Source: an uncultured delta proteobacterium
GTDB taxonomy: Bacteria; Myxococcota_A; Polyangia; Polyangiales; Polyangiaceae
Direction: 5' to 3'
Assembly: GCA_963716725.1 (NCBI GenBank)
Contig: CAVQUB010000004.1
Span: 32,001 to 96,000 of the forward strand
Length of the DNA: 64,000 nt
Part shown: piece by piece, positions 50,362 through 54,584 of the stretch
Layout: the number at the start of each line of letters is the position of its first letter
How positions within the stretch are numbered: position 1 is the first letter of the stretch
Made by a program: the position numbers and the translations under genes
Notes under the pieces: model-generated
Database searches by the model: none
Told to the model about the DNA's origin: nothing
What the model saw: the letters and a program-made list of their open reading frames with translations, nothing else

Positions 50362-51989
50362 GCCTGGGGCCCTCCGGCGTGGGACGCCACCGCAGAGCGC
50401 GCGAGTGTGCGTCCGAGATCGTAACCCTTGAGGCGATTGCCGTAGTAGAGCAGCAAGTTTCGGTCCTCGTGGAACACACGTTCGCCGCGGCGCACGGCCG
50501 CCGCCCGCGTGTGATAGCTGCTGAAGGCGCGCAGGGCGTCAGTGACGACCGCCTGCGGGTCCTGGGACAAACTCTCGGAGAGCCGCGGACCCCGCCTCGA
50601 GTGCCGAAGCGCCTCGATCACGCGCTCCGTCTCGCTCGCGAGGTCGCTGAAGAGGACGCTGGGTGAGCGGCCGCCGGTGCGGAGGAGTCGGTACAGGTCC
50701 ATCTCGGGGTTGTCGCGTTGGATCATGTCGAGCAGCGCGTAGCCGACGACGTGGGTGCTCATCGCGACGTTGTCCCGGGCGAACTCCCGAGCAATCGCCG
50801 ACGCGAGCTCGTTGGTGTACTCCTCGTCACGTTGAGCGTCGTGCACGGGCGCTCCGGCGTCGCAGACGTAGGTCGAGGAGTCGATCAGGCGCCCGCGTGG
50901 GTCGAGGCTGCGCCCCTCCTCGTCCACGTAGTTGCCCACCACGTCTAGGGGCTGGCTGAACGTGATCACCACCCGACTGTCCAGAGAGACCATGTTCGAC
51001 ATGAAGTTCAACACCTGCTTGGGGCGGCTGAACTCGTCGTCTTCGATGATGTAGCGGTTCTTGCCCACCTCTTTCAGGTGGTCGTCGATCAGCGTCTCGG
51101 CCTCGAGGCCGAGTTTGTACGAAATGGTGCAGGGCACGACGTAGAGGTTCGGCTTCTCGCGGTGGCTCTGCAGATTGCCCACGTAGGCGCGGACCGCCGT
51201 GCCGAGCAGGCCGCGCTTGAGCTTCTGCTCCAGCGCGCCGCTGCGTGAGCGGGTTCCGCCCGGGAAGAACAGGTTGTTGTAGTCGAGCTCGAGCGCGACG
51301 GTGGCGTACTCTTTGAGTACCTCCTTGTAGAGGCCCGCGGTCTTCTTTCGATCCACCCGGTAAGCGCCCAGGTTGTTCATGAAGAACGACGTGACCGGGT
51401 TGTTGAACAGGTTGAGCCCCGCTCCGTAGAGCAACGGCGGCAAGCCCATCAGGTGAACCGCGTAGCCGAGCACGATGCTGTCGAGGTGCGAAGAATGCGT
51501 CGGCACCACGACCAGGGTGCCTTTGTCGAGCAGCTTGCGCACGTGGTCCACCGAGCCCTGGATCTGCACGTGGTCGGAGAGCCCGCGTCGGAGGGAGCCG
51601 AGCGAGCCGAGCTTGCCCGGGGACATCGCCGTGAGCAGCACGCTCAGCCCCGTCGGGATCACGGTGGTCGAGAACTTGTACACGCGGTCGTCGAAGTTGC
51701 CCACGATCTCCGCGGCGAAGCGCAGCGCGATCTGATCGAGGAGTTCGCGCAGGTCGCGGGCGGAAGCGTGTCGGAGGCGCTTCTGCACGCGGTGGTAAAA
51801 GGCGTGGTCCTCGGCGATGCGGGCGTCGCCGCCGCGCTCGCGCTCGAGTCGTCGGCGTTCGTGGTAGAGCGTGTCGTTCACCAAGGCTTCGAGCCCCACC
51901 TCTTCGGGTAGGCGCAGCGATGCCACGTGACGGTCGACGACGCGCGTGGCCGCCTCGATTCGGGCGCGTTCGCGGTGCTCGGGTCGCAT
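50358..51989 (-). CDS. plsB: Glycerol-3-phosphate acyltransferase, PlsB-like
   Basis: PTHSSHLD, AGLNL, GAYRVDR, FFPGGTRSRSG. Stop overlaps the gpsA start (ATGA). Confidence 0.82.
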   Translation of the reverse strand: MRPEHRERARIEAATRVVDRHVASLRLPEEVGLEALVNDTLYHERRRLERERGGDARIAEDHAFYHRVQKRLRHASARDLRELLDQIALRFAAEIVGNFDDRVYKFSTTVIPTGLSVLLTAMSPGKLGSLGSLRRGLSDHVQIQGSVDHVRKLLDKGTLVVVPTHSSHLDSIVLGYAVHLMGLPPLLYGAGLNLFNNPVTSFFMNNLGAYRVDRKKTAGLYKEVLKEYATVALELDYNNLFFPGGTRSRSGALEQKLKRGLLGTAVRAYVGNLQSHREKPNLYVVPCTISYKLGLEAETLIDDHLKEVGKNRYIIEDDEFSRPKQVLNFMSNMVSLDSRVVITFSQPLDVVGNYVDEEGRSLDPRGRLIDSSTYVCDAGAPVHDAQRDEEYTNELASAIAREFARDNVAMSTHVVGYALLDMIQRDNPEMDLYRLLRTGGRSPSVLFSDLASETERVIEALRHSRRGPRLSESLSQDPQAVVTDALRAFSSYHTRAAAVRRGERVFHEDRNLLLYYGNRLKGYDLGRTLARSAVASHAGGPQA

Positions 51990-52085
51990 GGGAGCCCGAG
52001 CCTACAACGACCCGGCGGGCGCGGGCACAGTCATCCTGCGGCGCTTTTTGTCGCGCATTATCGGGCGGTGCGCTATGGCCGTCTC

Positions 52086-53018
52086 GTGTCATCAGCCGAT
52101 TCCGAGCGTGAGGCCGCGGGGGCCCGAGGGCCGGCACGTGAGCGGCGCGCGCCGCCTTCGCGACTGCCGGCGCCCCGGCAGGCTGGGCGCTCGCCGGTCC
52201 TGCCCTTTGCCATTGGCTTGGGCTTGGGCCTCGCGGTCGCGGTCGGGGTCATCGGCTTCGGATCGTCCAAGCGCCGGGGCCTGAACGCCCAGCTCGAGGC
52301 GCGCTGCGAGGGCCGAGAGATCGCCGCCTGCCGACAGCTGGCGCTCTCGCATCAGATCGGTCTCGAGGGTGCCCGCGACGAGAAGCGCGCGGCCGAGCTC
52401 TTCGAGCGTGCCTGCAACGCAGACGACGCCGCCGCGTGCCTCCACTACGCCAAGTCCATCGAGGCTGCCCGCGCGGGCGGAGTCGACCACGGCCGCGTGA
52501 TCACACTCCTCGAGCGCGCGTGTCAGGCTTCGGAGGCCGAGGCCTGCGCGGCCCTCGGGAAGCGCTACGAGAAGGGACGAGGAACCGCCAAGGATCCCGC
52601 GCGAGCCTTGCAGTTCTACCAACGGGGTTGCGACTACGGCAGCGCCGAGGCCTGCGGTGGCCTGGCGCTGGCGAAATACATCGGCATGGGCACCGAGCCC
52701 AACGTGGAGCAGGCGGTGGTGCTCTTCCAGAAGGCCTGCGATGGCGGCGACGCCGACGGCTGTCACGGCTTCGGGCGCATGGTGCTGGGCGGGCGCGGGG
52801 TGCAGAAGGACGAAGCCAAGGCCGTGCAACTCTTCGAGCGCTCCTGCGACGGCGGCTCGATCATGGGCTGCCGGGCCCTTGGCCTGATGCTTTCCGACGA
52901 AAAAGGCGCGCTGCCGGCCGATCCGGCCCGCGGCAGGAAGATGTTCGAGCGCGCCTGCGATCTGGGCGATCAGGTCTCCTGCGACCGGCTCGATCGTCCC
53001 GCGGCGGGCGCACGCTAG
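52086..53018 (+). CDS. Sel1/Hcp-like Cys-rich repeat protein (start uncertain)
   Basis: Repeats of AC..LG..Y..G.G...D..RA..LF.RAC after a TM helix. Confidence 0.88.
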   Translation: MSSADSEREAAGARGPARERRAPPSRLPAPRQAGRSPVLPFAIGLGLGLAVAVGVIGFGSSKRRGLNAQLEARCEGREIAACRQLALSHQIGLEGARDEKRAAELFERACNADDAAACLHYAKSIEAARAGGVDHGRVITLLERACQASEAEACAALGKRYEKGRGTAKDPARALQFYQRGCDYGSAEACGGLALAKYIGMGTEPNVEQAVVLFQKACDGGDADGCHGFGRMVLGGRGVQKDEAKAVQLFERSCDGGSIMGCRALGLMLSDEKGALPADPARGRKMFERACDLGDQVSCDRLDRPAAGAR

Positions 53019-53156
53019 CCGCTGCGGGGCAGGCCTATGCCGCCGGCGAGGACGGCGTCGGCCGAGAATCCAAAGCCCTCGGGGCCTGGCGCCGGACGAT
53101 CACCGTGCTCTAGTGCCGCGCGGCCGAAGTTCGAGTGGATTCGCCCCTGAGACCTG

Positions 53157-53409
53157 CGCTCATTTGGGCTCTCACAGGAAGGGCGGAAGAGCGGAAGGAT
53201 TTGGGGTGGTCAGGCGTTAGCCTCCGCAGGCCATTTCTGAGCGCGGTCACGTTGAAGTTGACGAGCAGGCCGACGGGCAACCGCTCATTTGGGCTCTCAC
53301 AGGAAGGGCGGAAGAGCGGAAGGATTTGGGGTGGTCAGGCGTTAGCCTCCGCAGGCCATTTCTGAGCGCGGTCACGTCGAAGTTGACGAGCAGGCCGACG
53401 GGCAACCGC
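53157..53409. repeat. 125-bp tandem duplication of the GxxExxY 3' end
   Basis: 53157-53284 and 53282-53409 are identical except T53253/C53378. Confidence 0.92.
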
Positions 53410-53730
53410 GAAAGGCGCAGATAGGTGATGACCTGCGCTTCGTAAATCGGGAGCAGCCGCTCGACCGCCTTGAGCTCCAGGAGGATACGATCTGGAAGCG
53501 ACCAGGTCGAGGCGATAGGCGCAGTCAAGGTGTACGCCTTTGTAGCGGATTGGTAGCGGTCGCTGCCGCTCGAACTTGAGCCGTCGTTCGGACAGCTCGG
53601 CAGATAGACAGGCCTCATATGCGGATTCCATCAGCCCTGGACCGAGATGCCGATGCACCTCGATCAGCGCACCGATCACCTCGTCCGTCCCATCCCCAAA
53701 TCTTCCGAGCTTTCGCCCTTCCTGTGCCAT
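53247..53730 (-). pseudogene. GxxExxY protein (PD-(D/E)XK superfamily), frameshifted near 53495
   Basis: VIGALIEVHRHLGPGLMESAYEACL...YRLDLV / ILLELKAVERLLPIYEAQVITYLRLS...GLLVNF. Confidence 0.88.
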
Positions 53731-53797
53731 CCCCGTGTGGTCGGGCCTCACTCCGAAACAGTTGCGGCTTTCTTCGCAGAAAGTGAGGGGATTTTTC

Positions 53798-54234
53798 TGG
53801 ATTCGGCCCACGACTCGGGGCGGTACGACCAGCGAAAGGGTCGGTCGGTCTGCAGATACCACGCGACGTACGCGTCGATCCTCGCCGCGAGGTCGTCGGT
53901 GCTTCTACTCGAGCCGCTACGGTGTCCGAGAGAGAGAGGGCGGCCGTCCCGAGCGCGGGGCGTCCGCCAGTCTCTCGCTAGGTGCCGCGCAGTCGAAGCG
54001 CTTGCGCCAGTCGTCCACCGTGCGCACGTGCACCCCGAGGAGCCGGGCGATGTCCGTCGCAGGCACTCCGTCCGCCATCATCAACACGGCCTGCGCCCGA
54101 CGAACCAGCCGCTGCTCCGCCCTGGCGGGTCGCAACGCCTCCTCGATCCGCGCGCGCTCTTCAGCCCTCAGCGCGAGCGGAACCGTCGGACGACCACCGT
54201 GCGCTCGGCCCGCGAACGCGCTGTAGTCGATCAT
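53798..54234 (-). pseudogene. IS630 transposase remnant: N-terminal HTH plus extreme C-terminus; DDE domain deleted
   Basis: RAQAVLMMADG...IARLLGV..RTV..WRKRF...LADAPRSGRPP, then STDDLAARIDAYVAWY...RPFRWSY. Confidence 0.85.
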
Positions 54235-54299
54235 GTCACCCCACTACACCGACGACACGCACACGGAAAAGAAACCAGCGAAACTTCTGCCGCGCGGCA

Positions 54300-54584
54300 C
54301 TAGTGCTTGTAGACCTTGTGCTGCGGGCGGCCCGCCAGGATCTGTTCTTTGCCCCAGTTGGTGACGGCTCGGAAGGTATCGCTCTGGATGAAATCCCGGA
54401 AGGCCTGCTCGTCGGACCACTCGCTGGTGATCAGATACGAAGCGTCATCGCTCACGTCCTTCCAGAGTGTCGAATTCGTATGACCGGACGCGGAGCGCAG
54501 GGCGCCGATCACTGAGGCGAACTTCTCTTCGAAGTCGCGCTGCTTGCCCGGCAAGACGCGATAATTCATGCCAACGGTTACCAA
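54300..54584 (-). CDS. Antibiotic biosynthesis monooxygenase (ABM)-family protein
   Basis: AGGAG RBS + TTG; YRVLPGKQRDFEEKF...YLITSEWSDEQAF. The stop TAG coincides with the IS target site. Confidence 0.85.
   Translation of the reverse strand: MVTVGMNYRVLPGKQRDFEEKFASVIGALRSASGHTNSTLWKDVSDDASYLITSEWSDEQAFRDFIQSDTFRAVTNWGKEQILAGRPQHKVYKH

Follow-up and report, generated by a model that had tools for sequence, protein, structure and literature searches.

Among described repeat systems, the closest to the arrangement reported here is REPIN/RAYT. In the partial set of published accounts used for this comparison, a usually single-copy gene lies between inverted copies of a short repeat, this repeat recurs at tens to hundreds of dispersed sites, in many cases as intergenic hairpin doublets, and genome-specific classes of the repeat match the flanks of the gene. 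Genes of the GxxExxY family (PF13366/TIGR04256) and the arrays around them resemble REPIN/RAYT in these respects. Within the coverage of the same accounts, RAYT is a HUH/Y1, IS200/IS605-like transposase and its repeat a single palindrome, whereas GxxExxY is a PD-(D/E)XK family member of about 125 aa and each of its arms is a tandem array of about three 8–9-nt units. Also unlike REPIN/RAYT as described there, the GxxExxY family extends across phyla at 50–68% identity, and arrays occur in some genomes where no GxxExxY gene was found.

Other known elements share part of this organization. Pairs of insertion sequences (IS) and MITEs with sub-terminal transposase-binding repeats have the same inward polarity, units near both ends, and autonomous together with gene-less forms, but the array cassette contains no DDE or other known transposase and no target duplication was seen at the array edges; the 9-bp or TA target duplications of the locus belong to outer IS4-type and IS630 ends and not to the arrays. 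The intervening sequences of 23S rRNA, which carry a four-helix-bundle ORF and are processed by RNase III, also place a small ORF inside a long inverted repeat; however, the cassette studied here lies inside an IS and not in rRNA, and matches no RNA family. Finally, as in an IS630 with passenger DNA, the whole cassette moves as IS630 cargo with a TA duplication at CTAG. It differs from a plain IS630, since a relative in another genome (G073, locus L154; 1190 bp, transposase 67% identical) has no cassette and the arms are repeats of the cargo itself rather than IS ends.

No published account of an association between GxxExxY genes and arrays was found in the openly accessible literature. A paper on TAACTGA repeats describes, in the part of it consulted, direct heptamer repeats upstream of genes and no gene-bracketing arrays (PMC4679880), and the function of PF13366/TIGR04256 is given as ‘Unknown’ in a table of the one survey found to list the family (PMC3424549).

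The locus was found in a 64,000-nt stretch of genomic DNA (the window). A preliminary description of this DNA had noted inverted repeats inside both ends of a GxxExxY ORF, and proposed either cis-acting recognition sites for the nuclease, analogous to REP/RAYT or transposon-end arrays, or a long-range mRNA/ssDNA stem sequestering the start region. The repeats themselves were all recovered from the sequence as described. The arm at 53173–53206 reads cacaggaagggcggaagagcggaaggatttgggg, has an exact second copy at 53298–53331, and is identical at 30 of 34 positions to the reverse complement of 53694–53726, with three substitutions and one gap. GGAAG-type pentamers stand at arm positions 5, 13 and 21, giving three G(G/A)AAG units per arm with a period of 8 nt. 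A repeat search lengthened the arms to 44 nt with 77% complementarity, pairing both 53166–53209 and 53291–53334 with 53690–53733. The inverted repeat exceeds chance, with a local alignment score of 45 compared with a mean of 15.9 (sd 2.3, maximum 30) for 500 shuffles.

The two ends of a minus-strand GxxExxY gene overlap with the arms. The first base of the 5′ arm (53694–53726, minus strand) is one base past the ATG (53730–53728), and the arm encodes AQEGRKLGRFG. The 3′ arm (53298–53331, minus strand, for the copy proximal to the gene body) overlaps the C-terminal codons and translates as PKSFRSSALPV; both peptides were found again in the translation. The 3′ arm is present twice, its second copy being at 53173–53206 (minus strand), because of a tandem duplication of the cassette 3′ end (53157–53406) that comprises 53157–53281 and 53282–53406 (2 × 125 bp, 99% identity) and was absent from the other 31 IS copies examined.

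Tandem duplications adjoining array arms were observed in three independent cases: the one in the window, one of 159 bp in the sister species G006 (L034, 1912–2070), and one at G000:C14:36275–36411, which is a triplicated 5′ arm in another IS copy of the window’s genome. From these duplications, array arms look recombinogenic. Four independent rearrangement junctions fall within 7 nt at 53733–53739 of the window, the outer edge of the 5′ arm.

In this copy the ORF is broken, which corrects the preliminary description. Positions 3–67 of TIGR04256 are matched in one frame (53335–53730, minus strand), lost near 53490–53500, and positions 68–114, including the ELK motif, in a different one (53247–53618, minus strand); the two frames score 76.8 and 48.7 bits (cut-off 35). 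It is thus a pseudogene, whose frame shifts after the D strand and before the ELK motif. For comparison, an intact paralogue (L031) scores 141.7 bits to PF13366 (cut-off 22). Among 32 IS copies in the window’s genome, 21 carry a common frameshift, six (class C) owe their ‘open’ frame solely to an 11-nt duplication, which compensates the shift but scrambles the catalytic strand, two have a low-scoring open frame and three are intact, so that 29 of the 32 are broken. Programmed frameshifting was considered for the split gene and rejected, since the intact copies differ at this point by a multi-base change and the class C copies are open only because the duplication compensates the shift.

The sole GxxExxY paralogue outside the IS copies of this genome is located near a contig start (C14:2117–2464, in L047, G000:C14:617–3964), with 72% DNA identity. 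It sits between direct repeats of about 200 bp that contain ACGCAG-type 9-nt arrays, and no inverted repeat bracketing its start and stop was found within 200 bp.

PF13366/TIGR04256 proteins are widespread in Bacteria and occur in some Archaea too. The catalytic residues D75, E85 and K87 were invariant in 64 sequences. The AlphaFold model has a pLDDT of 87.9, with low confidence for the array-encoded tails (residues 1–14 and 130–147), and its best structural neighbours are PD-(D/E)XK proteins (3ijm, the Cas4 protein SSO0001, BpuSI and Hjc), with Z values of only 7.4–5.8 and no Foldseek match at E ≤ 0.001. A sequence search of the PDB for a solved relative returned 0 matches at E ≤ 1.

The window region is a repeat with 32 copies in the genome, at 94–100% identity. 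The full unit is an IS630-family element of 1736 bp, with terminal inverted repeats at its ends and two transposase frames followed by the GxxExxY gene. Five copies are full-length, and one of them (L010) scores 175.1 bits to the IS630 transposase model (cut-off 100). Insertion takes place at (C/G)TAG with TA on each side, and all left ends shown in the 32-copy alignment follow (C/G)TA. The remaining 27 copies are deletion derivatives or truncated, with the GxxExxY end kept in all: a 667-bp deletion is shared by nine, including that of the window, another four have lost 480 bp, six more are MITE-like with 635 bp, and the rest are of other types. The window copy is a non-autonomous element at 53113–54300 (minus strand) with the 667-bp deletion at about 53900, terminal inverted repeats at 53113–53142 and 54271–54300, and the TA target duplication within CTAG at 53111–53112 (partner 54301–54302). 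Its transposase remnant (53917–54234, minus strand) is restricted to the N-terminal helix-turn-helix part, with 105 aa and 41 bits.

The 32 copies were produced by IS630 transposition. Since 21 of them share the frameshift and only three hold an intact gene, the recent burst was IS630 transposition of a mostly broken passenger. The window copy being itself frameshifted cargo of an IS630, an action of the nuclease on its own ends cannot explain the 32 copies.

Two further observations were made on this element and its surroundings. Translation of a full-length copy (L010:294–1513) gives the IS630 transposase in two frames, of 127 aa and 262 aa, with the split after a CCCTCTCTCTCTC run that is also present in the G073 relative; this split may be programmed frameshifting. 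Upstream of the IS, the ORF at 51927–53018 (plus strand) contains 108-nt periodic repeats with a Sel1/TPR-like look, and gave only weak matches to TPR models.

Comparison with the cassette-free relative L154 uncovered an inner layer. A block of about 528 bp is inserted just upstream of the IS end, with an imperfect 9-bp direct repeat on either side (gattcgccc at 53138–53146 and gattcggccc at 53800–53809). In the window, this MITE-like cassette covers 53147–53799 (minus strand; 528 bp plus the 125-bp duplication), with a recognisable terminal repeat at 53147–53167 and a degenerate opposite end at 53779–53799. In the sister genome G006 the homologous block is free-standing (527 bp, protein 81% identical); its terminal repeats are perfect over 21 bp, its target duplications are 9 bp long, and 24 such ends are found in that genome. 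Among 121 genomes of the bacterial family, 25 contain this end motif (reversed control, 0), and in G154 it flanks an IS4-family transposase (221 bits, cut-off 152); this IS4-type end may resemble those of IS10. Shared ends, a 9-bp duplication and the lack of a transposase inside, as in an IS4-derived MITE, were all observed, although in the window one end is degenerate and the 9-bp repeat imperfect. From the empty site in L154 and the comparisons with G006 and G154, the arms therefore lie inside an IS4-type MITE that is in turn inside an IS630. They are not the ends of the mobile unit, since two further nested pairs of terminal repeats enclose them. The window cassette is a dead passenger, consisting of a frameshifted gene in a degenerate MITE within an internally deleted IS630. 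No autonomous partner of the inner MITE was found in the window’s genome or in G006, where the terminal motif is present only at cassette ends, and a synteny search for an empty site around the cassette of G003 gave only paralogous flanks.

GxxExxY cassettes are again MITE-like cargo in one unrelated genome, the MAG CAVTRY01 (L070, L071, L074, L080 and L087), in an element with different 23-bp terminal repeats, 9-bp target duplications and at least eight copies. At another locus (L184, G143:C45:6000–6600), two IS4-type ends in the same orientation have a run of AACTAGC heptamers between them, a further instance of short tandem arrays beside mobile-element ends.

Since the preliminary description had proposed checking homologous genes for co-varying 5′ and 3′ repeats, the family was surveyed with 80 loci from named records, 78 of them scorable, from Polyangiaceae and Sorangium, Acidobacteriota, Planctomycetota, Cyanobacteria, Chloroflexota, Verrucomicrobiota and an ANME-1 archaeon; relatives were searched with a 4-sequence alignment. 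Such repeats are present in many phyla as well as in sister genomes. The start-versus-stop inverted-repeat score was at least 33 in 61 of the 78 loci and in 0 of 145 windows displaced by 800 bp, whose maximum was 30, and periodic RAG units number three or more in 50 of the 61 bracketed loci. From its outer edge inward, each arm consists of (T)TCAC followed by about three units of 8–9 nt, and arm similarity ends at the outer TCAC; the window version of this pattern is TCACAGGAAGGGCGGAAGAGCGGAAGG. The unit cores include GCNGAG, ACAGAG, ACGAAG, GCAAAG and GG(A/G)AG. In relatives of the window’s genome, GxxExxY genes lie between differing but complementary purine-rich and pyrimidine-rich arrays, and in the sister species G006 GGAAG is changed to GGGAG in both arms. 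Among 14 further gene loci, four had no flanking repeat within 350 bp. Bracketing by arrays is a hallmark of the family across phyla, and the unit type is specific to the cassette.

Array hairpins of a similar design were also observed around genes of another family. At three of four loci with four-helix-bundle genes of TIGR02436, the ‘23S rRNA intervening sequence protein’ family (L141, L144 and L142, in G045 and G044; not L143), the gene lies in a hairpin of tandem 7–8-nt units. These are of AGCTNTT, GGTGATC and GAAAG types and bear no relation to the units of GxxExxY arrays. This suggests that the array hairpin may be a niche independent of the nuclease.

The conservation of individual units was analyzed next to that of the arms. 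In 40 cassettes, identity over the 6-nt core was 5.58/6 for partner units and 5.16–5.19/6 for non-partner units of the same cassette, compared with 3.95/6 between cassettes. In 49 non-redundant cassettes, arm mismatches were concentrated at the spacer offsets +1 (48/155) and +2 (32/144) and, within the core, at the degenerate position (23/126), with none at the last two positions (0/113 and 0/111). Of 175 arm mismatches, 33 were G·U-compatible versus 49 A·C, with no G·U enrichment. Since a stem alone needs no common core in all six units, the pattern looks like iterated recognition units, and at the level of sequence it argues for recognition in DNA rather than for an mRNA stem.

These data bear directly on a role in RNA, in which base pairing between the 5′ and 3′ ends of the transcript would form a long stem, either masking the start codon or serving as a substrate for RNase III, like the ORF-carrying intervening sequences of rRNA. 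In the folded 461-nt sense strand the arms were paired in both the minimum-energy and the centroid structures (z = −5.97, with 0 of 100 shuffles as good), so that the mRNA/ssDNA stem proposed at the outset stands as far as pairing in silico is concerned, and the start of the 5′ arm so close to the ATG would also fit it. However, such folding is expected of any inverted repeat, the mismatches gather in spacers instead of falling at random and have no G·U bias, and pairing by itself does not require the core that all six units share. Solo arms and gene-less arrays are common, and Rfam gave no match in 52900–54500, rRNA included, and at 20 other loci only sub-threshold microRNA-precursor models on hairpins. 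A function of the arms as an RNA stem is therefore considered decidedly unlikely.

The same comparison weighs on the view that the arms have no present function and are decaying terminal repeats of an old MITE, kept by descent only. The state of the window copy, whose gene is broken and whose arms are enclosed by a degenerate MITE and a dead IS copy, agrees with this view. Nevertheless, divergence of the spacers beside conserved cores indicates that the cores are under selection, the same architecture recurs across phyla with different sequences, and the IS4-type terminal repeats form a separate, outer pair. We regard this explanation as very improbable.

Solo and gene-less copies of the motif, which the preliminary description had suggested looking for, do exist. 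With reversed-pattern controls giving 0, array counts in related genomes ranged from 12 to 205, beside one to 11 GxxExxY genes: 62 arrays and two genes in G045, 25 and one in G042, 13 and one in G043, 12 and four in G044, 117 and one in G009, and 205 and 11 in G041. Many dispersed arrays are convergent pairs 50–170 bp apart, that is, gene-less hairpins. Two array classes are present in G045 (about 25 of GCCGAG type and about 36 of ACNGAG type, counted from the listing), and each of its two genes is flanked by one of them. The hairpin loops of G045 are unique; therefore, the dispersed arrays in that genome did not arise by plain copying of a single element. Inspection of the flanks showed no target-site duplication directly outside the arrays.

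Within the bacterial family, the CACAGGRAG-type array was found in 23 of 121 genomes, and the gene in 16 of these 23 compared with 12 of the 98 without the array (Fisher p = 9e-8, a value that overstates the evidence, since the genomes are related and not independent). The gene is a single match in 18 of 27 positive genomes, the window’s own left out. Flanking arrays are of the same subtype as the dispersed ones in G101, G009, G176 and G114, but the sole gene of G132, like that of G165, has flanks of a unit type other than the dispersed CACAGGRAG arrays. In the array-rich genomes G134 (42 arrays), G177 (81) and G019 (11), no GxxExxY gene was found even at E ≤ 0.01.

In the window’s genome, an arm search allowing up to six mismatches placed 33 of 33 matches to one of the arms and 61 of the 62 to its counterpart inside IS copies, and only eight related arrays lie outside them, one being a hairpin. 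Gene-less intergenic arrays of CACAGGAAG-GGGAAG type were observed in this genome at C2:245746–245815, C15:210290–210450 and C18:147454–147530; their forms are a tight hairpin, a 55-bp unit in threefold tandem, and a twofold tandem. The array hairpin of this genome is located at C2:245750.

The distribution of arrays and genes could also mean that the arrays are an independent REP-like class, spread or kept by other means, with small genes lodging in the hairpin loops. In variants of this explanation, a homing-type nuclease might use the hairpin as a landing pad, or the hairpin might serve to insulate or stabilise the transcript of the inserted gene. It would account for the array-bearing genomes in which no gene was found (G134, G177 and G019), the disagreement in G132 and G165 between the units beside the gene and those dispersed in the genome, the four-helix-bundle genes between arrays of other units at three of four loci, and the unique loops of the gene-less hairpins. 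Against it, G045 (two classes, two genes), G009 and G101 show co-variation of unit class and gene, array presence and gene presence are strongly associated over the 121 genomes, and a consensus of (T)TCAC plus RCNGAG-type units is kept around the family across phyla, which is unexpected if any hairpin serves. Independent spread of the arrays is considered unlikely.

The preferred reading, to which we assign a probability of roughly one half, is that the arms are the cognate arrays of the GxxExxY cassette, that is, cis DNA sites in a REPIN/RAYT-like arrangement, with the mechanism inferred from correlation. Flanking of the gene by an inverted dispersed repeat, as in REPIN/RAYT, was found in the window, in the 61 of 78 loci and in G045, G009 and G101, but not in G132 and G165, and dispersal of the repeat far in excess of the gene, often as hairpin doublets, was found in related genomes. 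By this reading, the encoded nuclease would read the arrays unit by unit as cis-acting DNA sites, both in cis and in trans. The array–gene–array cassette would be the autonomous form and the gene-less arrays and hairpins its non-autonomous derivatives, in a REPIN/RAYT-like partnership that would use a hydrolytic PD-(D/E)XK enzyme. The initial proposal of REP/RAYT-like cis sites is thus apt for the family in view of bracketing and dispersal, and less so for the genome in which it was made, with its eight arrays outside the IS copies.

For annotation, these results mean that the N- and C-terminal tails of GxxExxY ORFs are repeat-encoded, and that many ‘GxxExxY’ matches in the window’s genome are IS-borne pseudogenes. 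Its link to a defined cis element, namely two tri-unit arrays in inverted orientation, gives the family a testable function, and these arrays are dispersed more than 100 times in some genomes. A broader proposal, put forward tentatively and with somewhat less than even odds, is that GxxExxY (PF13366) is the enzyme partner of a hitherto undescribed class of dispersed palindromic ‘array’ repeats and the PD-(D/E)XK counterpart of RAYT/REPIN, with a nuclease that reads tri-unit arrays and drives or maintains their spread, and with an array-hairpin design that also houses other small genes, such as those of the four-helix-bundle type. If the link between the family and the arrays holds, the systems made of a repeat and a domesticated enzyme, so far known only for tyrosine transposases, would gain a second enzyme class with a different mechanism, and the low-complexity palindromic repeats of one class seen in Myxococcota, Acidobacteriota and other phyla would find an explanation.
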